Under the pieces are notes generated by a model. It saw only the letters and a list, made by a program, of their open reading frames with translations. It did not search any database and was not told where the DNA came from. From positions 113,195 through 133,194 of IMG/VR virus record IMGVR_UViG_3300011813_000035: 20,000 nucleotides of DNA; one strand, given 5' to 3'. Made by a program: the position numbers and the translations under genes. The stretch is from an uncultured virus (IMG/VR IMGVR_UViG_3300011813_000035) (taxonomy: Duplodnaviria; Heunggongvirae; Uroviricota; Caudoviricetes). Shown here piece after piece: positions 4,454 through 20,000 of the stretch. Numbering within the stretch: the stretch's first letter is position 1; every line of letters begins with the position of its first letter.

Positions 4454-5584
4454 GTGAGCGAGTGCTACGAATTAACACTAACACAAAATTACGTTTCAGA
4501 TTGGACGTTTTGCGATGCAATTAGAGAACTTATTCAAAATGGCACAGATCAAGAAATATTAGATAATAGTAATGATTTTTCTATAAACTATGATTACAAA
4601 AATGAAATATTAAGATTTACTAATTCTAAGTCAAAGCTAAGTATTAATACTTTACTATTGGGTAAAAGCAGTAAGAGTGACAATGACGATACAGTAGGAC
4701 AATTTGGCGAAGGTTACAAGATAGCCGCACTTGTTTTGAATAGATTAGGAAAAACTTTTACAGTTTATAATAATGAGAAAAACGAAGTGTGGAAATCAAG
4801 TTTTAAAAACAGTGAAAAGTGGAGAGAAAAAATACTCTCATTTTATATTGAAAAATCTCCTACTAAGGACAAGGGACTAGTCATTGAAATTGGTAATGTG
4901 AGTAGTAGGGAGAATAATGATTTATATGACGTATGGCTTGGCTTCTATGACTTTGATGAATCTGAAAGAATCGAAACCACGTACGGAGACATTCTTTTAT
5001 CAGAAGATTTTAAGGATAGGATATTCGTAAATGGACTATCAATAAATTGTACTGAAGAAATGAAATATGGATATAATTTCAAGCCCAAATATATAAAGCT
5101 TGAACGTGACAGGAAAACGTGTGATAGCTGGCAAGCCAGGGATACAACATCGTTAATGATTGCAGAAGCCATGGTAAGAGGAAAAATGGAAATAGAAACT
5201 GTTAAAAGAATGGTCGAGAGTAATGTAAATGATGTTTACAATATGGATTTTAATGGTTACGAAAATAATGTAGTTGAAGTAAAGAATATGCTTATCTCAG
5301 AATTTGACAAACAAAATCCTACATTATATTCAATACCTGTACAATCACAAGAGGATATCAATAAGGTTAAGGCGTATGGTGGAAATCCAGTAGTCGTGCC
5401 ATCAAAGGTAGCGTCCTTACTAAAGCGAGAGACTGAAAAGAGAATAAATGAATTAGTTTCTCTCCCAGTTGAAAAGACACTTTCCCTAAGAGAAAAATTT
5501 CAGAGATGGTATGATATTTACGCTAATAAGCTTGATACAACGCCTAAAAGTGAGTTGTCAGGATTGATTAATGAGATCCAGTAA
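4454..5584 (+). CDS. GHKL (HATPase_c)-type ATPase domain protein
   Basis: N-box RELIQNGTD and G-box GQFGEGYK; RBS GGAGG, GTG start. Confidence 0.75.
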   Translation: MSECYELTLTQNYVSDWTFCDAIRELIQNGTDQEILDNSNDFSINYDYKNEILRFTNSKSKLSINTLLLGKSSKSDNDDTVGQFGEGYKIAALVLNRLGKTFTVYNNEKNEVWKSSFKNSEKWREKILSFYIEKSPTKDKGLVIEIGNVSSRENNDLYDVWLGFYDFDESERIETTYGDILLSEDFKDRIFVNGLSINCTEEMKYGYNFKPKYIKLERDRKTCDSWQARDTTSLMIAEAMVRGKMEIETVKRMVESNVNDVYNMDFNGYENNVVEVKNMLISEFDKQNPTLYSIPVQSQEDINKVKAYGGNPVVVPSKVASLLKRETEKRINELVSLPVEKTLSLREKFQRWYDIYANKLDTTPKSELSGLINEIQ

Positions 5585-5605
5585 TATTGTTGATAGGAGA
5601 AAATA

Positions 5606-5941
5606 ATGAAAACATATATTGATAATAACGTAAAAATTAATGGAAATGATTTCACTGACTACGACAGAGCTATTGAATACATAGGTAAAATAATGAAAAG
5701 AAATAAAAGTTATATATATCAATGTGATTACTGTGGCAAAAATTGTAAACATACTCCGGAGTTCATCCTTCCAGTCATTAAGTCAATTGAAACCTGTGCA
5801 TATGGAGGACATAGAGGAGCTAAGTTGGCAACTGCTGTAGGAAGTATAATGGATAATGAACAGAGAGATATTTGTCCTAGTTGTCAAAAGAAACTTGCAA
5901 GGTTGGCGAGTTTGATACCTAATGTCATTCTTACGGAATGA
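5606..5941 (+). CDS. Hypothetical protein with two CxxC pairs (Zn-binding)
   Basis: CDYC...CPSC; RBS AGGAG. Confidence 0.7.
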   Translation: MKTYIDNNVKINGNDFTDYDRAIEYIGKIMKRNKSYIYQCDYCGKNCKHTPEFILPVIKSIETCAYGGHRGAKLATAVGSIMDNEQRDICPSCQKKLARLASLIPNVILTE

Positions 5942-5973
5942 AAGAGAGGTTTCATGACGGAAGGAGGGTATAC

Positions 5974-6255
5974 ATGTTCATTGAATCAGGAGAAGAAAGG
6001 GTATTGAAACCAATAGATATTGCATATATGACAGGAAAATCTAAAACACCGATCGATTATGATTTTAAAACTGAAAAAGAAATCTTGGATAATCTCGTGG
6101 CTGCTTGGAACGCATTTGTGAAACTTCCGGTTACTCACCCGATGGAATTAGGAGATTTTTGTGATGGAATACATAGATGTCAGTACGTGTTAATGGCGAG
6201 AGAAGCTAGGAGAAGCAGACCGGATATTTATCCTTTTAAAGAAAAAAATGAATGA
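5974..6255 (+). CDS. Hypothetical phage protein (start revised from 5938 to 5974)
   Basis: AAGGAGG at 5961-5967 precedes in-frame ATG 5974; the 5938 start overlaps a boundary motif. Confidence 0.7.
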   Translation: MFIESGEERVLKPIDIAYMTGKSKTPIDYDFKTEKEILDNLVAAWNAFVKLPVTHPMELGDFCDGIHRCQYVLMAREARRSRPDIYPFKEKNE

Positions 6256-6297
6256 TTAACAGATAAAAGCGATGTTTCATGACAGAAAGGAGTTTTA

Positions 6298-6741
6298 ATG
6301 TTTAATAAGTATTACACGGAAAACCACAAAACTACCAATAATACAACAAATATTTTTAATATTCCAGATGAATATATAATACATCATCGAAATCAAAATG
6401 ATGATATTGATAGACTTAAATACTACATCGAAAATGCAAGTGCTGTTGATAGTTGCGCGATATGGCTAGATGTTTTATATCCAATAACAAAGAAAATAAA
6501 GGATAGTGTAACTAATTATATCATGAGGGATTACAAAGGGGAAGAACATACTTTAACGATTTCCGTAAGTGAACCACAATTTGTCACGGCTCTTTCAATC
6601 CCAAAAACAAGAGATTCGATGAGCGTAATTAGTAATAGTATACGAACACAGTTTAACATGAACAATTACATAATGGTAAATACGGATATATTTAACGGTG
6701 ATTTTAAGATTGTAATTAGATTATTAGGTCGGATAGAATAA
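6298..6741 (+). CDS. Hypothetical protein
   Basis: RBS AAAGGAG, 147 aa, flanked by boundary motifs. Confidence 0.7.
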   Translation: MFNKYYTENHKTTNNTTNIFNIPDEYIIHHRNQNDDIDRLKYYIENASAVDSCAIWLDVLYPITKKIKDSVTNYIMRDYKGEEHTLTISVSEPQFVTALSIPKTRDSMSVISNSIRTQFNMNNYIMVNTDIFNGDFKIVIRLLGRIE

Positions 6742-6766
6742 TACATTCAATTAAGAGGGAGATAAA

Positions 6767-7015
6767 ATGTTAAATATTTTTAAAAAAGGTCATGAAACGC
6801 TTACATCTGATATTGATACATGGGTAGTTAGATGGAATAGGAGATATGGAGATTTTAGTGGAAGTTATGAGAAAACAGCACAATTTTTTACAGATAAAAG
6901 TGAAGCTCTTAGATTTCAAGAAGAATTAAAACGTGCCATTAAATTGTTAGGACATACCGCGTCTCACTTAACAGATGTACGGTGTGAAAGAGTTAAGAAA
7001 AACAGTTGTGAATAA
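6767..7015 (+). CDS. Hypothetical protein
   Basis: RBS GAGGAG, 82 aa, flanked by boundary motifs. Confidence 0.7.
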   Translation: MLNIFKKGHETLTSDIDTWVVRWNRRYGDFSGSYEKTAQFFTDKSEALRFQEELKRAIKLLGHTASHLTDVRCERVKKNSCE

Positions 7016-7050
7016 AACAAACCTTTCAAATAGAATGGAGGTGATTTTAA

Positions 7051-7382
7051 ATAGAAGGAGCGTGTAGTAACCAAGTTGTAAAATGCATTATTTATACTAA
7101 TGATTTAGAACTGGGAAGAAGTAAACTGAAAGAAATTGAAAAAGATAAAGGGTCACAGGAATTTATATCATTAAGAAGATCAGATCCCAGTATAACAACG
7201 AGACAATATTCGATGACGGAGAAGAATGGATCACAGTAAAGCCTAACAATGGAGCAAGGGGATATAGGTGGAGAAAAGCATGGATAGATGTCAAGACCCC
7301 TTATGAACAGCTTACAACATGTGTGCTACCATATGGAGATTGGTATAGGTGGGAAGATCCAAAGTATTTTAATTGGGATTGA
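7051..7382 (+). pseudogene. Frameshifted hypothetical gene
   Basis: RBS GGAGGTG then ATA-initiated frame IEGACSNQVVKCIIYTNDLELG...; after ~7150 the coding-like sequence continues in the -1 frame (TGIYIIKKIRSQYNNETIFDDGEEWITVKPNNGARGYRWRKAWID...WD, TGA 7380-7382). Confidence 0.6.
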
Positions 7383-7409
7383 AATCAACATTTGAAAGGA
7401 GAAAATTAC

Positions 7410-7562
7410 GTGAGCAAAGTTAGGTTGGCTGGTATGAGAGTAGGAACTACCGGAATCCTGGGTGCTGTTTTGAATATGTGTAACAAAGGAAAGAGTGTCT
7501 CTGACATTAAAACGTTCTGTGAAACATCATTAAATTTAGACGGTATGAAGGAGGATAAATAA
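7410..7562 (+). CDS. 50-aa hypothetical protein (below the track cutoff)
   Basis: RBS AAAGGAG, GTG start, MSKVRLAGMRVGTTGILGAVLNMCNKGKSVSDIKTFCETSLNLDGMKEDK; ends adjacent to the next ATG. Confidence 0.55.
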   Translation: MSKVRLAGMRVGTTGILGAVLNMCNKGKSVSDIKTFCETSLNLDGMKEDK

Positions 7563-7563
7563 T

Positions 7564-7833
7564 ATGGAATTAAATGAATATTGGTCTGCACAAGCAGTGG
7601 AGGAATATAAAAGCATGTTGTATGAACAGAAAATGCAACACTATGGTTTAGCCTGTGAATTACAGGCACCACACGTAATTCATAATGCAGAAATAAAACA
7701 AGATGGAGATATGTGGTGTTGTATTTTGGGTGATCTGCCTACGGGTGTCGTCGGATTTGGAAAAACTCCGAAAGAAGCATGTGATGAGTTTGATATAGTT
7801 TGGCACGAAGGATATAAGACAACCAAACAGTAA
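7564..7833 (+). CDS. Small protein with a HicB-antitoxin-like C-terminal segment
   Basis: DGDMWCCILGDLPTGVVGFGKTPKEA resembles the HicB N-terminal pattern (D/E-G...PDLPG....G.T.EEA); RBS AAGGAGG. Confidence 0.5.
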   Translation: MELNEYWSAQAVEEYKSMLYEQKMQHYGLACELQAPHVIHNAEIKQDGDMWCCILGDLPTGVVGFGKTPKEACDEFDIVWHEGYKTTKQ

Positions 7834-7851
7834 ATTGAAGGGAGATGCAAA

Positions 7852-8184
7852 GTGGAACAAAGTAGGAATAGGGTTAAAAAATTAAACGATACTTCAGACT
7901 ACAAGTATGCGGCAAGACAATATAAAGATTATTCAATAGCGAAAGAAATTGAGTCGGATCTTAAAGTAATGGTATATGCGATTTTGGGGAGTAAAAAAGA
8001 TATAGACGTTCAAAGCTCAAAGACCCCAAGTTGTTTTGGAGTCGTAGGGAAGGAACCTAAATATTATTGGTTTGCCTATATCAAGCCAGGTGGTTATATG
8101 TTCTTAGCAGAGTCTGAAATCGAATTATATTGTAACATCATTGCTAAAATTGTTGGGAATAGACTGTATATACCATTCAGTTAA
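7852..8184 (+). CDS. Hypothetical protein
   Basis: RBS AAGGGAG, GTG start, 110 aa. Confidence 0.65.
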   Translation: MEQSRNRVKKLNDTSDYKYAARQYKDYSIAKEIESDLKVMVYAILGSKKDIDVQSSKTPSCFGVVGKEPKYYWFAYIKPGGYMFLAESEIELYCNIIAKIVGNRLYIPFS

Positions 8185-8231
8185 TAACGTTAAAACGGAA
8201 GTTTTATAGCTCAACAGGTGACAAGGTAAAC

Positions 8232-8252
8232 AAAAAAGGCGACATGATCGCC
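8232..8252 (-). terminator. Rho-independent terminator of the RT operon
   Basis: Minus strand GGCGA-TCATG-TCGCC-TTTTTT, 3 nt after the RT stop codon. Confidence 0.8.
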
Positions 8253-8255
8253 CAA

Positions 8256-9206
8256 TTATTTTTCTTTAGAAAACTTATATAAATTCTGATATTGACCAGG
8301 ATTGACTTGACGAATGGCAGTTAGTAATCCTTGAAGACGCTTCTTAGATTTTTCTGGATTTAATTTTAGCTCAGTTAATTCATGTATTACCTTAAGGCGC
8401 ATTGAGTTTCGAGGTATGGGATTTCCATTCCTGTCAAGAACAACTCCAGTAATAAGTTTTGGATAATTCTTGGTATACGTTTTAACTTTTGACTTGGAAA
8501 TCATATAATGATATTTTGTTACTATTTTATTAACCATAGTTTTAAATCGATAATTAATTTTATTAGCACAAGAAAATGTTACATCGTCGGCATATATTGT
8601 CATAACTATATTATTTTTAGAAGATAGATTATATAATTCATCAAACATTGGTCTATTTACTAAGTATGATAAAATTGGGCTGGCTGGAGAACCCGTTGCT
8701 AAATGGTTTGAATTTTTTAATTTCTTTTGCATATAAAAACTTTCAACTTTATCAACATTTTTTAAGGGACACAAAGTTAAATCAACTGTTGTTAAGTTGG
8801 TAAGAATATTTGCAATATCAGGGGAGGTTTTGAGTTCATTAATAAAAAATAAATAGACATATTCTCGAGGTATACATGGGAAGAAAGCTGTTAAATCAAT
8901 TTTATATACATACTTATTCCCTTTATGGATTAATGCGTTATCATAATATGATTTACCTTTAACACCTGAAAAAACATAGTTTGGAACTTTTATTTGACTT
9001 AATTGAGATTTGAGCGATCTTTGAATTTGTTTGACACTGTAAGATGGCGCTTCAACCAATCTTGGTTTAGCTTTCGTATCAATGTAGATATTGTATTCCA
9101 TTGCAATATCTTTTTGATTAAAACTATTCTTATTTGTAATCTTTAATAAGTACCTTAAAGATTTTTTTGACTTTAAGTTATATATTTTACAGTTTGTATA
9201 ATTCAT
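8256..9206 (-). CDS. Retron-type reverse transcriptase
   Basis: KIDLTAFF, LATGSPASPILS (variant of PQG..TSP), catalytic YADD, retron region X NALIH (NAxxH) and region Y ITG (VTG-like). 316 aa with no maturase or endonuclease domain. RBS AAGGAG at 9214-9219. Confidence 0.9.
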   Translation of the reverse strand: MNYTNCKIYNLKSKKSLRYLLKITNKNSFNQKDIAMEYNIYIDTKAKPRLVEAPSYSVKQIQRSLKSQLSQIKVPNYVFSGVKGKSYYDNALIHKGNKYVYKIDLTAFFPCIPREYVYLFFINELKTSPDIANILTNLTTVDLTLCPLKNVDKVESFYMQKKLKNSNHLATGSPASPILSYLVNRPMFDELYNLSSKNNIVMTIYADDVTFSCANKINYRFKTMVNKIVTKYHYMISKSKVKTYTKNYPKLITGVVLDRNGNPIPRNSMRLKVIHELTELKLNPEKSKKRLQGLLTAIRQVNPGQYQNLYKFSKEK

Positions 9207-9236
9207 ACAAACACTCCTTGCTTTTTAGTGCTAGTA

Positions 9237-9461
9237 TCAATCCTTAACAATCTCATATAATAACTGGATGAAACGAGATAGGGTTTTAGGATCAACGTGT
9301 GGTGCAATCAGTGATACGATAAGTAAAGCAACAATGAAGAGTAGTAGTGCTACTATTAACTGACCCAAATTAATATTGTAATTATTATTAATGGTACAAT
9401 TGGTCAAGTTGGTCTGATTGTTGCTAAAAATTTGTGGATTTTTATCATCCGGTTTTTTCAT
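9237..9461 (-). CDS. 74-aa Asn-rich, single-transmembrane protein; candidate retron effector/toxin
   Basis: RBS AAGGAGG (9468-9474); NNQTNLTNCTINNNYNIN then hydrophobic LIVALLLFIVALLIVSLIA and an amphipathic C-terminal helix; lies between the ncRNA and the RT. Confidence 0.75.
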   Translation of the reverse strand: MKKPDDKNPQIFSNNQTNLTNCTINNNYNINLGQLIVALLLFIVALLIVSLIAPHVDPKTLSRFIQLLYEIVKD

Positions 9462-9468
9462 AATTCAC

Positions 9469-9523
9469 CTCCTTGTTATTATTGGCTCCATATGGAGTCT
9501 CCCAATCCATTAATAACAAAGAG
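9469..9523 (-). promoter_or_regulatory. SD-sequestering hairpin in front of the 74-aa ORF
   Basis: RNA CUCUUUGUUAUUA (9523-9511) pairs with UAAUAACAAGGAG (9481-9469): 13 bp with one G-U. Inner palindrome CTCCATATGGAG at 9486-9497. Confidence 0.75.
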
Positions 9524-9810
9524 ATACATAACCTTGCATCACTATACTAGCACAAAACTTACTCCCTATTTTTTTCTATAGGAGATTAAAATTTCAAAAC
9601 CAACCGATTACCTTTTCATTGATGACATAGTCCTACGAACAAACACTTCGCACCGCACCTTTTCCGATACCCGGGGGAGGTACAATCATCTCGTCTCCAC
9701 TATTGTCGTCGAAAGGGATTGGGGTTTTAAAAATACTCAGAAGGCTCTGAGTAGCATTCATGTTGGTAGCATGAACCATATTGGGAGAAATCTGGTTATT
9801 ATTCACTGAC
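9498..9810 (-). ncRNA. Putative retron ncRNA (msr-msd)
   Basis: 9-bp inverted repeat at 9780-9788/9498-9506 (a2/a1-like); GG at 9777-9776 just inside; two short hairpins (9757-9775, 9734-9753); long branched stem 9592-9732; further hairpin 9562-9584; promoter immediately upstream. Confidence 0.7.
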
Positions 9811-9816
9811 ATGGGC

Positions 9817-9845
9817 ATTATATCATATTTTGGAAAAAACATCAA
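9817..9845 (-). promoter_or_regulatory. SigmaA promoter TTGATG-N17-TATAAT with extended -10 TG
   Basis: -35 at 9840-9845, -10 at 9817-9822 preceded by TGA; transcription start predicted near 9810. Confidence 0.85.
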
Positions 9846-9872: not shown

Positions 9873-10406
9873 ATGACAGATAAAGAAAGAATATTAATGA
9901 CAATAATTACTAGAATAATTCCAGGCTTGATGTATTGTGGTAATTCATATGAAAAGAGAGAAGAATATGTTAAATCATATATGCTTGATACGGCTGGACT
10001 CGAAAGTGGAGATCTAGTATTTGCGAATACATCAATCTATCCGAATGATTTTATAGTAGGGTTTATTCACGAAATTAAGCCTGATTGTATCGTCATAAGA
10101 GAAATCGGGAGCGATAGATTGTGTAATTACTATAATGAAATGTTTACAAAAATCAACAAAGACAAACTTGGATATGAGATATTGGAAGGAGTTCAATATA
10201 AAACATATCATAAGGTATTAAAAGCTTTTAGCGATTATGCAAGTTATGCAACAAAGTTTAAATATATTTCATTTGACGAAAACACGTGCACTGTCCAGTC
10301 AAGAATAATGTTTTCAGATGAAATCAAGTATGAAATAAAATTTAAATATGATAGTAAAACCACTATTAAGAGTATTGGAAAACTAATTAAAGAAAAGGAG
10401 GTTTAA
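9873..10406 (+). CDS. Hypothetical phage protein
   Basis: RBS AAAGGAGG, 177 aa. Confidence 0.75.
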   Translation: MTDKERILMTIITRIIPGLMYCGNSYEKREEYVKSYMLDTAGLESGDLVFANTSIYPNDFIVGFIHEIKPDCIVIREIGSDRLCNYYNEMFTKINKDKLGYEILEGVQYKTYHKVLKAFSDYASYATKFKYISFDENTCTVQSRIMFSDEIKYEIKFKYDSKTTIKSIGKLIKEKEV

Positions 10407-18208: not shown

Positions 18209-19501
18209 ATGAAGGATATGTTGAAAACATTGCTTAAAAATGGTAATATAGGTATTAGCGACATCGTTGGAGTTCTTTTTGACTATAAGGAGAATTCTAC
18301 GATGAATAAAACAAAGATACCAAAACCAACATATCGACCAGAAAAAGATGTCTGGGTGTTAAATGTGCCTAAACATCTAAGTAGAGATGGAAAAAGACAT
18401 CAAGTTAGAGGAAAGACAAGTGAAGATGCAATTACGGAATATAAAAAGTATATTGTGCTACCAGAAGATGGTATTACAGTTGAAAGTTATATGCTATATG
18501 TATTGCTAACTTACTTCTATAAAAATGTCGATAATACAACGTATGACAGATACGAGGGCACCTATTTAAAACATATTGTTGGAAGTATTCTTGGTCAAAA
18601 ACAGATATGTGATGTTACAGGAGATTACCTAACAGAATGGATGAAAACATATACTAGTGGTAATTATCAAAAACAGACACCTGCCCATTTAAAGGTTCTG
18701 ATTAACGAAACATTTTTAAGAGCTGAACAAAACAAAATAATTACTAAGAATGTGTCGGAGTATATGACTATTTCATATAAGCAGTGTAAAAGTAAAAGAA
18801 GTGACAAGGAACTTTTTACATTAGACGAACTCCAAAGAATCGAAACGATAATTATTGACTCTTGGGCTGGAAAAGTAAACGGACATATACACCTTTATCA
18901 TTATTCACCAATCTTTATGATTATGGCGTTAAGTGGAATTAGAATAGGCGAAATGATTGCTCTTAAAAAAGAGGATATTAATCGTGCTGAAAGATATATA
19001 TCCATTAACAGACAATGTGTTGAAGAATATGAAAGAGACGACAAAGGCCACAAATTAAAAAAGATTAAGAGGATTACAGATCCTAAGACCAATACGAGTG
19101 TAAGAATAGTGCCATTATCTGAAAGCGTATTGTACTGGATTGACGAACTTGAAAGAAGGCAAACAGAATTAAAAATCATCTCTGAATTTATATTTACAAA
19201 TAGAAAAGGGAAACACCCTCTTAAGTCAAACATTTACGATATGTGGGCTAAAGTATTAAAAGATGCCAACGTCGATTATCGGCCAAGTCATAAACTGAGA
19301 AAGACTTTTATCACGCTTTCGATTGATGGCGGAGTGGAAATGGCAGATGTTGCAAAAATGGTAGGTCACAAAAATATTACAACGACAATTAACACGTATT
19401 ATAAACCAGTGATTGATAAGGAAAAGCATTTAAAAGATGCTAAAATAATTGATGGTATTTTTGGCAATTCCAATATGAATAAGAGGCATATTTATGGGTA
19501 A
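18209..19501 (+). CDS. int: Tyrosine recombinase/integrase (likely start 18302)
   Basis: GIRIGE (R), PKT (K), HKLRKT (HxxR), GH, YY (catalytic Y); AAGGAG at 18287-18292 precedes in-frame ATG 18302. Confidence 0.92.
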   Translation: MKDMLKTLLKNGNIGISDIVGVLFDYKENSTMNKTKIPKPTYRPEKDVWVLNVPKHLSRDGKRHQVRGKTSEDAITEYKKYIVLPEDGITVESYMLYVLLTYFYKNVDNTTYDRYEGTYLKHIVGSILGQKQICDVTGDYLTEWMKTYTSGNYQKQTPAHLKVLINETFLRAEQNKIITKNVSEYMTISYKQCKSKRSDKELFTLDELQRIETIIIDSWAGKVNGHIHLYHYSPIFMIMALSGIRIGEMIALKKEDINRAERYISINRQCVEEYERDDKGHKLKKIKRITDPKTNTSVRIVPLSESVLYWIDELERRQTELKIISEFIFTNRKGKHPLKSNIYDMWAKVLKDANVDYRPSHKLRKTFITLSIDGGVEMADVAKMVGHKNITTTINTYYKPVIDKEKHLKDAKIIDGIFGNSNMNKRHIYG

Positions 19502-19799: not shown

Positions 19800-20000
19800 T
19801 TATGCAAGGTTAACGTTTACAGCCTGTGGGCCACGATTACCATCTGTTACTTCAAATGTTACTGACTGTCCATCATCTAAAGACTTGTAACCGTCCATAG
19901 CAAGACCTGAGAAATGTACGAATACATCATTACCCTGCTCATCACAGATAAAACCAAATCCCTTTTGCGCGTTAAACCATTTAACTGTACCTTTTTTCAT
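19800..20000 (-). CDS. cspA: Cold-shock protein, CspA family (probably a host gene)
   Basis: GTVKWFN, RNP1 KGFGFI, RNP2 VFVHF, GPQA; 66 aa. Confidence 0.95.

Follow-up and report, generated by a model that had tools for sequence, protein, structure and literature searches.

The cassette at positions 9845-8232 of the window (the whole 20,000-nt stretch of viral DNA that was analysed) is probably an intact Type VI-lineage retron in a two-gene form, ncRNA-SP-RT, that does without the HTH protein and is carried as an antisense accessory unit in a prophage, where, by analogy with Retron-Vpa2, msDNA would trigger the toxicity of a small protein (SP). Its novelty lies in the loss of the HTH protein, in an SP of transmembrane type and in a clade-specific insertion within the reverse transcriptase (RT), and not in the retron type.

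Operon layout and prophage context

The operon is intact and reads, on the minus strand, promoter, leader, SP gene, RT gene and terminator, within a prophage of a low-GC bacterial genome. An earlier, sequence-only reading of the window had listed a promoter, a structured leader, a 74-aa ORF, an RT with NAxxH, YADD and ITG motifs and a terminator, all running antisense to the phage genes; each of these elements was confirmed, as was their orientation, with a leader of about 350 nt between the transcription start (near 9810) and the SP start. That reading had also taken the ensemble for a complete prophage-borne RT/ncRNA/small-protein retron unit, and in this it was right. The features are the following.

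9817..9845, minus strand: promoter, with -35 box TTGATG (9845-9840), 17-nt spacer and extended -10 box TGnTATAAT (9825-9817)
9544..9811, minus strand: retron-like ncRNA domain (fold, alignment, consensus fold, 39-leader duplex, covariation)
9811-9803, minus strand: 5′ strand of the ncRNA, able to pair with IR1
about 9796-9783, minus strand: a1
9778-9776, minus strand: invariant UGG just 3′ of a1 in the alignment, with the candidate priming G
9776-9756, minus strand: hairpin H1
9753-9734, minus strand: hairpin H2, followed by a U-run
9731-9593, minus strand: long variable hairpin, candidate msd template
9592-9570, minus strand: small hairpin
about 9569-9555, minus strand: a2
9557-9544, minus strand: IR1
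9462..9543, minus strand: riboregulator, in which the anti-RBS strand (9523-9507) pairs with the RBS strand (9485-9469; GGAGG at 9473-9469)
9237..9461, minus strand: SP ORF, 74 aa, with a strong GGAGG site upstream
9224..9237, minus strand: IR2, a 14-nt segment next to the SP stop codon that is complementary to IR1 (inverted repeat I2, 14 nt at 93%)
8256..9206, minus strand: RT ORF, 316 aa, with RBS AAGGAG at 9219-9214
8228..8253, minus strand: intrinsic terminator, a hairpin (8253..8237) with a 7-bp stem and a 3-nt loop, then a T-run

The promoter matches the consensus at 10 of 12 positions, has the upstream TG and is the best of the region. Its -10 box can be aligned in all 39 related leaders, and transcription would be expected, from the sequence, to start near 9811-9809. 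A 70-aa ORF at 9845..9633 was considered as a third gene and rejected, as it overlaps the promoter and the ncRNA, has no family match and is not conserved in frame. The terminator is two-faced and could also end the plus-strand gene at 7852-8184. Neither boundary motifs nor target duplications were found around the cassette, and the motifs by which it had been described as bracketed come down to short imperfect repeats (e.g. 15 nt at 80%). Likewise, no similar phage devoid of the cassette was found, the 5.1-kb query returning only five short matches that each covered 4% of its length. For the stretch, three sequencing runs are listed, all of them DNA metagenomes of a single study and none of them RNA.

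The RT belongs to the Type VI lineage

The RT carries the motifs of retron RTs when aligned with five other retron types, that is, NAxxH (N90-A91-H94), a VTG-type motif (ITG, 252-254) and the catalytic YxDD (YADD, 205-208), and each of 20 relatives has N90, A91, H94, Y205, D207, D208, T253 and G254 unchanged. Residues 170-172 read ATG where PQG is usual, as had correctly been pointed out. Canonical Type VI RTs have PTG at this position and the Firmicute relatives ISG or PSG, and the ATG of the window is a lineage trait, its xTG pattern being held in common with canonical Type VI. In profile searches the RT matched Pfam RVT_1 (6.2e-13), phrog_2825 (1.6e-59) and, most strongly, PADLOC RT_VI (2.6e-69; 231.6 bits, next model 136 bits). 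The RT_VI scores were 294-351 bits for five canonical phage Type VI RTs and 218-256 bits for seven Firmicute relatives. The window RT falls with the Type VI group of RT clade 3 at a score below the canonical range. Among the best 25 models, RT_IV and RT_V were absent or below 90 bits for the canonical Type VI and Firmicute RTs, and RT_IV did not appear for the window RT. In the tree, the Firmicute RTs join the five canonical Type VI RTs at 100/99, apart from I-A, II-A, III-A and Ec107-like RTs, a placement that within clade 3 is limited by the tree containing no Type IV or V RTs. A search for Type IV and V reference RTs (PDLC02947 and PDLC02951; 301 genomes each) gave no match at E <= 1e-60, its controls being silent as well. 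Identity to the canonical Type VI RTs is 30-35%, and between motif blocks the Firmicute RTs have some 20 additional aa, a clade-specific insertion absent from the canonical RTs. Motifs, profiles and tree place the RT in the Type VI retron lineage. The proposal of a new or variant retron subtype consequently holds for the variant, but not for a wholly new type, in view of the RT_VI score and the tree support.

Type IV retrons, e.g. Retron-Eco6/Ec48, consist of an RT and a two-TM effector. The window resembles them in that a membrane protein, there the effector, accompanies a clade 3 RT; however, the Type IV effector has two TM segments and lies downstream of, or overlaps, the RT (as described by Mestre et al. 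2020), whereas the protein of the window is single-TM, upstream and within the RNA.

The HTH protein is missing throughout the clade

According to Mestre et al. (2020), Type VI is defined by a Cro/C1-type HTH protein (cluster 2_1; PADLOC HTH_VI) encoded upstream of, or overlapping, the RT gene. The window has no such partner. None of its 36 ORFs matched HTH_VI, the flanking ORFs matched no Pfam family and contain no HTH domain, and the gap between SP and RT is only 30 nt, in agreement with the initial observation that an HTH gene is lacking. Genome-wide, the best HTH_VI match reached 47 bits and lay far from the window, as against 101-120 bits for true HTH_VI proteins, and the control matched non-specifically, in 13 of 14 genomes. 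At 64 related loci, Cro/C1-type proteins made up only 3 of the 121 nearest neighbours. In these sequence comparisons, neither the window nor any of the 86 related loci that have an RT ORF contains the Cro/C1 HTH protein.

These loci, mostly from Clostridia and with RT identities of 37-54%, all retain the conserved leader and a small ORF 23-83 nt before the RT; a lack of the ncRNA or small ORF in homologues, which would have spoken against the proposed retron subtype, is thus not what is seen. At least 86 loci and 387 RT clusters make up the HTH-less clade, mostly Clostridia sampled from gut and fermenters, and several are borne by phages. As reported by Garcia-Rodriguez et al. (2026, 10.64898/2026.04.27.721009), the HTH is present in about 78% of 158 Type VI entries; term searches of that article found no discussion of the HTH-less ones. 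No literature report of an HTH-less or Clostridial Type VI retron was found, and a match for 'retron type VI' actually concerns Type VII.

The HTH is described as essential in both Type VI systems studied, Vpa2 and Sen3 (bioRxiv 10.1101/2025.10.22.683967; 10.64898/2026.04.27.721009), and its loss could accordingly have left a decayed, non-functional Type VI retron. Such decay is very improbable, given that the RT and SP frames are intact, that the HTH-less layout has been held in 86 of 86 loci across the range of RT identities given above, and that compensatory changes in the RNA helices point to continued selection.

The leader is a retron-like ncRNA followed by a putative riboregulator

The leader has the make-up of a retron ncRNA, being closed by the a1/a2 repeats and containing conserved hairpins of msr type besides a variable hairpin as the candidate msd. 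In the alignment of 39 leaders, 94.5% of the cells pair, compared with 31-48% when the partners were slid, and 14 pairs are altered on both sides, a support that none of 500 shuffles equalled; such both-side pair changes amount to 3/3 in H1 and 7/8 in H2. Furthermore, a duplex between the 5′ and 3′ ncRNA segments forms in every one of the 39 leaders, at a mean z of -2.9. Folded as a single sequence, the ncRNA part of the window has a z-score of only -1.2. The structure is supported by the comparison of relatives, through covariation across the 39 leaders, and not by energy alone. Among leaders, the central region differs both in length and in sequence, and the window's own fold gives the same layout. 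No Rfam family reached its gathering score anywhere in the window, the matches in the leader being at chance level (E of 2 or more).

In the riboregulator, the helix that sequesters the RBS corresponds to inverted repeat I1 (17 nt at 88%). The RBS hairpin has a fold z-score of -3.3, with none of 200 shuffles as good, and the helix is invariant or near-invariant in all 39 leaders. Pairing of IR1 with IR2 would close an RNA loop around the SP gene. The two motifs are equally placed around SP in 69 of 83 distinct loci, their core occurs in 15 distinct combinations among the 39 leaders, with at least 9 of 10 pairs formed in 37, and compensatory changes were seen in the window and in loci L001, L017, L039, L046, L048 and L055. 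Moreover, the riboregulator loop holds a copy of GGGAG, the other copy being located in the a2 zone. Across the clade, the repeat common to the two places is 7-10 nt long and co-varies in 38 of 39 leaders, the longest shared word averaging 8.3 nt versus 4.65 nt in shuffles, and in L009 and L055 both copies are changed. The window's own repeat is GGGAG alone (5 nt), which is not above shuffles. The window is the weakest clade member for two RNA features, the repeat and the 5′-strand/IR1 helix, the latter having a C-A mismatch and forming a weak duplex (-13.5 kcal/mol, z -2.0). Being complementary to a1 too, the co-varying repeat may also reflect an alternative RNA-RNA rather than an msDNA-RNA pairing.

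The conservation of the RBS-sequestering helix bears on another view, in which control would be post-translational and similar to that of Sen3 but without the HTH: SP would be made constitutively and restrained by the RT or by an RT-ncRNA/msDNA complex, until a phage factor (e.g. a RecBCD/AddAB inhibitor) released it. Retron-Sen3 is indeed described as a Type VI retron with constitutive ssDNA and SP and with control at the protein level (10.64898/2026.04.27.721009), and the insertion in the Firmicute RTs could provide a new interaction surface. Nevertheless, a helix kept nearly unchanged across 39 leaders argues for translational control, and no antitoxin-like partner is present, which makes this view unlikely.

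A small protein with a transmembrane helix

In SP, an Asn-rich N-terminus predicted to be disordered takes up residues 1-31; a transmembrane helix is predicted at 32-52 and, towards the C-terminus, an amphipathic helix at 58-73. The AF2 model has a two-helix core (mean pLDDT 66.6; helices 74-85). The Kyte-Doolittle maximum over 19 residues is 3.4, compared with only 1.0-1.5 for five proteobacterial phage-borne SPs. No Pfam or PADLOC match was obtained for SP; PADLOC is without an SP model, and the canonical SPs likewise gave none. All 46 relatives of SP are unnamed.

The sequence-only reading held that the partner protein fits no described type. This did not hold up: the RT belongs with Type VI, for which Mestre et al. 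(2020) had already noted small accessory proteins encoded upstream of the RT, and the small protein of Type VI is described as a toxic effector embedded in the retron RNA (Zhang et al. 2025, 10.1101/2025.10.22.683967; Garcia-Rodriguez et al. 2026, 10.64898/2026.04.27.721009). According to the same two reports, SP toxins have a conserved two-helix core and require a hydrophobic C-terminal helix. By analogy, the SP of the window is a putative toxic effector.

SP is short, spans the membrane once and has its RBS sequestered. A small membrane protein behind a sequestered RBS is the typical layout of a type I toxin. It could be argued from this, and from the location of the cassette within a prophage and of seven relatives on viral contigs (profile scan; a scan with the single protein gave 11 viral stretches and no confirmed relative), that the cassette serves the prophage itself, as an RNA-controlled small membrane toxin, type I TA- or holin-like, for maintenance, superinfection exclusion or lysis timing, with the RT in a secondary or regulatory role. 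We regard this as quite unlikely. Most relatives are found on bacterial contigs in the company of defence systems (restriction enzymes, TIR, SIR2, AbiH, GmrSD), as well as integrases or transposon genes, SP was never seen without the RT in the 86 loci, and canonical Type VI retrons of P2- and Mu-like phages are described as defending against other phages.

Proposed mode of action and comparison with known Type VI retrons

In the favoured reading, that of a functional HTH-less Type VI-lineage retron, a constitutive promoter would produce one hybrid RNA consisting of the retron ncRNA and then the SP coding sequence. With the RBS of SP locked in the hairpin and the SP gene looped onto the ncRNA by IR1-IR2, SP would remain untranslated. 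The RT would copy the variable hairpin into msDNA, normally scarce. An infecting phage would let msDNA accumulate. The msDNA 5′ end, as the complement of the a2-zone repeat, is proposed to be capable of base-pairing with the riboregulator loop and would thereby free the RBS. SP would then be made and enter the membrane, and growth would stop before the phage completes its cycle (abortive infection), protecting the lysogen population and the resident prophage.

Retron-Vpa2 of Vibrio parahaemolyticus, as described by Zhang et al. (2025, 10.1101/2025.10.22.683967), is similar in its order of ncRNA, SP and RT on a single transcript (hyRNA), in a 3′ end past SP that pairs back to the ncRNA, in the hydrophobic C-terminal helix of SP and in an RT of the RT_VI lineage. 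For Vpa2, 7-nt repeats common to the msd end and the loop of the riboregulator are proposed, and the co-varying repeat of the clade would be their parallel. It differs in that its HTH represses reverse transcription and is toxic when lost, whereas the window cassette has none; at 74 aa, the window SP is also the longer of the two, its transmembrane helix is a true one, and the host is a Firmicute. With Retron-Sen3/cl2075 (Garcia-Rodriguez et al. 2026, 10.64898/2026.04.27.721009) the window shares the long-range IR1-IR2 pairing with IR2 just past the SP stop, a sequestered RBS, a long internal hairpin whose centre varies, inverted repeats at the ncRNA ends and the two-helix SP core, but the HTH that is antitoxin and central node in Sen3 has no counterpart here. 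The canonical phage Type VI retrons compared (Shewanella phage MuM16-1, Pasteurella phage Pmp14, Yersinia phage vB_YenM_56.17, Peduovirus P22H1 and Klebsiella phage ST147-VIM1phi7.1) are likewise accessory units of temperate phages, with an upstream small ORF and an RT_VI with xTG. In all five, however, an HTH_VI gene of 102-106 aa (101-120 bits) overlaps the RT start, the SPs are of 48-54 aa and amphipathic rather than transmembrane, and the RT is without the insertion.

Both of the Type VI retrons studied require the HTH for viability, so that a cassette lacking it may function in another way, and the Sen3 report indicates that Type VI lineages do differ in mechanism (10.64898/2026.04.27.721009). 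A tentative possibility is that the clade represents a natural minimal Type VI retron without a protein antitoxin or repressor, in which a membrane toxin would be restrained solely by the architecture of its own mRNA, the stronger Watson-Crick IR1-IR2 helix displacing the G-U-rich 5′-end/IR1 helix during transcription, and in which the cDNA would be the trans-acting key that opens the RBS. In that case, Type VI would have msDNA acting as riboregulator at its ancestral core, and the HTH would have been added later. Among retron types, only for Type VI is it proposed that the reverse-transcribed DNA turns a toxin on and does not hold it off, and its two studied members, as described, disagree on the switch mechanism, with the HTH central in both; the HTH-less clade offers a simpler system for the roles of the RNA and msDNA alone. 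To the lysogen, the cassette probably adds a further prophage-borne defence, directed at competing phages. Tools that require RT_VI together with HTH_VI may miss such HTH-less systems in Firmicutes.

The retron cassette and its prophage setting

The cassette forms a single compact operon on the minus strand of the window (9845-8228), and all of the parts described in the sequence-only reading, i.e. promoter, leader, 74-aa ORF, reverse transcriptase (RT) gene and terminator, could be located there:

Features of the cassette and the prophage integrase
9845-9817, minus: promoter, TTGATG-17 nt-TATAAT with an upstream TG, the top-scoring sigma-70-type site of the region
promoter to SP, minus: leader, ~349 nt
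9461-9237, minus: ORF of the small protein (SP), 74 aa, with a strong GGAGG site upstream
9206-8256, minus: ORF of the RT, 316 aa, starting 30 nt after the SP ORF
8253-8228, minus: terminator, a hairpin and T-run at the operon end
18209-19498: integrase, a prophage gene of the window

The cassette is shown to be an intact RT/ncRNA/SP unit of the Type VI retron lineage, in which both proteins and the RNA helices are under selection. As had been described, it runs antisense to the phage genes, both adjoining genes (7852-8184 and 9873-10406) and nearly all others in the window lying on the opposite strand. The window reads as a prophage; besides the integrase, its genes encode a C5 DNA methyltransferase, a polynucleotide kinase-like ATPase, guanylate kinase, NrdD, NrdG, dUTPase and a cell-wall hydrolase. 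Since no repeats bracketing the cassette were found in its flanks, contrary to the boundary motifs claimed earlier, and a search for a related phage without the cassette found none, its insertion into the prophage is suggested by two features only, its opposite strand and the lower G+C content of the RT gene (27%, vs 31-38% in the flanks).

Lineage and distribution of the reverse transcriptase

The RT contains the NAxxH, YADD and ITG motifs reported before, and matches the Pfam family RVT_1 (6.2e-13). Among the PADLOC retron RT models, RT_VI came top (2.6e-69, 231.6 bits, profile positions 2-276 of 279), with RT_III-A as runner-up at 136 bits. For calibration we used Type VI retrons from five phages (Shewanella MuM16-1, Pasteurella Pmp14, Yersinia vB_YenM_56.17, Peduovirus P22H1 and Klebsiella ST147-VIM1phi7.1), in all of which the small ORF, HTH and RT genes follow one another in canonical order. 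Their RTs scored 294-351 bits with RT_VI and 145-153 bits with the second model, and their HTH proteins 101-120 bits with the HTH_VI model. Seven relatives of the window RT gave 218-256 bits with RT_VI and 110-140 bits with the second model; RT_IV and RT_V were absent or below 90 bits among the best 25 models listed for each calibration RT or relative. RT_VI also scores the RTs of other retron types (187-207 bits for the III-A and Ec107-like RTs of G000, the genome of the window), so that rank and margin, not raw score, decide. In a maximum-likelihood tree of 34 RTs (24 Firmicute, five canonical Type VI, I-A, II-A, III-A, Ec107-like and a Staphylococcus phage RT; Types IV and V not included), the Firmicute and canonical Type VI RTs split from the other five with support of 100/99. 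The five canonical RTs formed one clade (100/100) and the Firmicute RTs fell into two groups whose order was not resolved. Two of the checks proposed by the sequence-only reading, RT phylogeny and PADLOC, point to the Type VI lineage. The ATG that it noted in place of PQG is indeed there, but as a trait of the lineage, canonical Type VI RTs having PTG and Firmicute relatives ISG or PSG. Moreover, the Firmicute clade RTs have in common an insertion of ~20 aa between conserved blocks (RT residues ~140-165, window ~8790-8710), around DLTLCPLKNVDKVESFYMQKKLKNS, which the alignment shows neither in the five canonical Type VI RTs nor in four other retron types.

A search of clusters at 90% identity gave 387 RT relatives (E <= 1e-3), no more than three of them exceeding 60% identity (98, 82 and 72%), and the relatives with a named source came from Clostridia and a few Bacilli. 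Of 399 genomes sampled and scored within the class, four, G000 included, carried a close homologue (E <= 1e-60), as did none of 12 in the same family, a patchy spread that fits a mobile accessory system.

Absence of the HTH gene

Type VI retrons are described by Mestre et al. (2020) as combining clade 3 RTs with a Cro/C1 HTH protein of 91-110 aa, and small auxiliary proteins of 75-79 aa are noted for them there. The 30-nt gap between the SP and RT genes leaves no room for an HTH gene, none of the 36 window ORFs matched HTH_VI, and no ORF up to 2 kb away in either direction matched any Pfam family, in agreement with the earlier statement that the HTH gene is lacking. Genome-wide, the best HTH_VI match reached 47 bits, and matches lay on other contigs or far off; as the same search was positive in 13 of 14 control genomes, these are generic XRE proteins. 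The survey of neighbours that had been suggested, covering 64 non-redundant related loci and their 121 nearest neighbours (one per side where present), found a Cro/C1-type domain in three:

Nearest neighbours with a Cro/C1-type domain
L017: 215 aa, opposite strand
L054, 2008-2256, minus: 82 aa, opposite strand to the cassette, HTH_26 1.6e-17
L071, 2059-2298, plus: 79 aa, cassette's strand, upstream of the leader, HTH_3 1.3e-7

With the HTH gene missing at the window and rare at the 64 loci, the two-gene form is the norm of the clade and not an accident of the window. Since the HTH protein, a defining feature of Type VI, was looked for and not found, we do not file the cassette as a canonical Type VI retron but take it as an HTH-less variant of that lineage. 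Of the proposed new or variant retron subtype, the variant stands, within a lineage already known. In the divergent relatives L071 and L054 the small HTH gene lies just upstream of the leader, and either locus may represent an intermediate or a convergent form with three genes.

The remaining nearest neighbours were mutually unrelated, many being defence or mobile-element genes, and neighbours at related loci included integrases, recombinases and TnpV. The flanks of eight loci (L004, L005, L006, L009, L045, L059, L075 and L076) encode MjaI- and MvaI/BcnI-type restriction enzymes, TIR, SIR2, AbiH, GmrSD, a type I R subunit and a CAP12-type TIR. Related cassettes are thus found in defence-island company.

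The small protein

Of the 87 related loci, seven lie on viral contigs and 80, kept out of 91 found, come from species-representative genomes; the RT ORF could be delimited in 86, L026 being cut at its RT end. In all 86 a small ORF ends 23-83 nt ahead of the RT start, as in the window, so that the homologues do not lack it, a possibility raised earlier. It encodes 59-85 aa in 85 loci, the exception being L052 (41 aa, without RBS), and 84 of the 86 have an RBS match of 6-8 letters. Thirty-one small proteins align as one family, with the layout MKKAD-KP, an Asn/Val-rich stretch, a hydrophobic helix and then a CCPELLADFVRW-type helix; the window SP has the same layout at 12-31% identity to other members. 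It matched nothing in Pfam or PADLOC, and a profile search returned 46 relatives, all unnamed proteins. The AF2 model (mean pLDDT 66.6) leaves residues 1-31 unstructured (pLDDT <50) and predicts helices at 32-52 and 58-73 (block pLDDT 74-85), the first strongly hydrophobic (Kyte-Doolittle 19-residue maximum 3.40). The five proteobacterial phage-borne SPs are 48-54 aa, Lys-rich and amphipathic only (maxima 1.0-1.5). In the divergent Firmicute subclade L063-L065 the N-terminal pattern of the window family is joined to a Lys-rich amphipathic tail, a mixed form that suggests, but does not prove, common descent.

Structure of the leader RNA

An alignment of 39 non-redundant leaders, beginning at the -10 box and ending at the SP start, showed conserved blocks on either side of a central region variable in length and sequence, which in the window is predicted to fold into a long imperfect hairpin (9731-9593). 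Rfam has no model for this leader RNA. Pairing in the consensus helices holds for 94.5% of cells, vs 31-48% after sliding the 3′ partners by 1-3 columns; both-sided changes occur at 14 leader pairs (88 cells), and the observed values were reached by none of 500 shuffles. The outer helix of the closing stem forms between the very 5′ end of the transcript and IR1, one of two complementary repeats (IR1 and IR2) on either side of the SP gene; this helix is G-U-rich, with mostly one-sided variation, and adjoins the inner helix formed by strands a1 and a2. The closing-stem segments form a duplex in 39/39 leaders (mean z -2.9), the window being among the weaker (z -2.0), and the UGG directly 3′ of a1 is invariant. 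Both-sided changes affect 3/3 pairs of leader hairpin H1 and 7/8 of H2. The latter (window 9753-9729, minus), which covaries in relatives, is followed by UUUUU and scored as terminator-like; its role could be that of an attenuator or just of an msr-type stem.

The RBS-sequestering hairpin, in the window a 17-nt helix with a fold z of -3.3, is invariant or nearly so in 39/39 leaders, so that the alignment shows conservation, not covariation. A word of 7-10 nt is common to the a2 zone and the loop of this hairpin, both copies changing in step (e.g. L009, L055); the longest such word averages 8.3 nt, vs 4.65 in shuffles. The window's own word is GGGAG only, not above shuffles, and its copy of the cassette is weaker than its relatives for both this repeat and the outer closing helix. 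In the window only, the 9-nt word AAUAAUAAC is duplicated (9803-9795 and 9483-9475, minus). The latter site flanks the SP RBS; the second copy, which lies in the closing stem's 5′ internal loop at a position occupied by GAGCAGU in relatives, could compete for the anti-RBS strand.

IR2 abuts the SP stop codon, so that its pairing with IR1 encloses the SP gene in an RNA loop. Of the helices that the SP-RT spacer can form with the 420 nt upstream, the best falls at this place in 69 of 83 distinct loci. Among the 39 leaders, IR1-IR2 makes 10/10 Watson-Crick pairs in 23 and at least 9/10 in 37, through 15 distinct sequence combinations, with changes compensated on both arms in the window, L001, L017, L039, L046, L048 and L055. 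As the 5′-end/IR1 helix is G-U-rich and IR1-IR2 is Watson-Crick, IR2, once transcribed, should displace the 5′ end from IR1, which would fit a co-transcriptional switch. In most relatives (e.g. L004, L006, L021) IR2 is followed by 4-8 U, the window having an A-run at the same place; the IR1-IR2 helix of those relatives therefore resembles a terminator, which would stop the hybrid RNA short of the RT gene.

Comparison with studied Type VI retrons

Two Type VI retrons have been studied experimentally. According to the report on Retron-Vpa2 (Zhang et al. 2025, 10.1101/2025.10.22.683967), the ncRNA and SP coding sequence lie in one "hybrid RNA", the SP is the toxin and requires its hydrophobic C-terminal helix, and its RBS and start codon are held inside hairpins. 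The msDNA, scarce before phage recombination proteins appear, is required for derepression of SP translation, proposed to act via a 7-nt repeat in the msd and riboregulator loop, and the retron without HTH is toxic. For the Retron-Sen3 lineage, the second study (Garcia-Rodriguez et al. 2026, 10.64898/2026.04.27.721009) describes IR1-IR2 pairing with IR2 just past the SP stop, a sequestered RBS, a variable internal hairpin, and in Sen3 post-translational control with the HTH as antitoxin; it gives the HTH in ~78% of 158 Type VI entries, and the rest are not discussed there. Every RNA feature named in those studies has a counterpart in the window cassette, the short repeat more clearly in its relatives, and the HTH is the feature without one. 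Hence, with an RT of Type VI lineage, the view that the SP partner matches no recognised type no longer holds.

The cassette most likely works like a Type VI retron. The mechanism we favour, by analogy with Vpa2, is repression at the RNA level relieved by msDNA: the SP, a putative membrane toxin, would be held back in the RNA, and msDNA build-up on infection would lift this repression. The main rival is protein-level control as in Sen3, in which case the RT itself might be the restraining partner in place of the HTH antitoxin that has no counterpart here. The invariance of the RBS hairpin and the co-variation of the a2/loop repeat argue for the Vpa2-like mechanism.

Other retrons in the genome and further genes of the window

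A complete Type III-A retron, with all genes on one strand, is encoded on contig C3 of G000 (~5328-9161; PRTase_III-A 216 bits, WH_III-A 72.7 bits, RT_III-A 429 bits). The third retron-type RT of the genome lies on contig C22 (~29008-32802, RT 1378-2358 of the locus), its best model being RT_Ec107-like (474.9 bits), and a 143-aa secreted-looking protein without PADLOC match is encoded downstream. In the window, the C5 cytosine DNA methyltransferase (1479-2939, plus, 487 aa) matches an orphan MTase model (258.8 bits). No restriction enzyme was seen in its vicinity, and it probably serves the prophage as anti-restriction self-protection. A cold-shock gene lying 10 kb from the retron, just past the prophage's integrase end (19800-20000, minus, cut by the window end), matches CSD_V, the PADLOC model of the Type V retron partner (2.5e-17); most likely it belongs to the host and is an ordinary gene of the CspA type.
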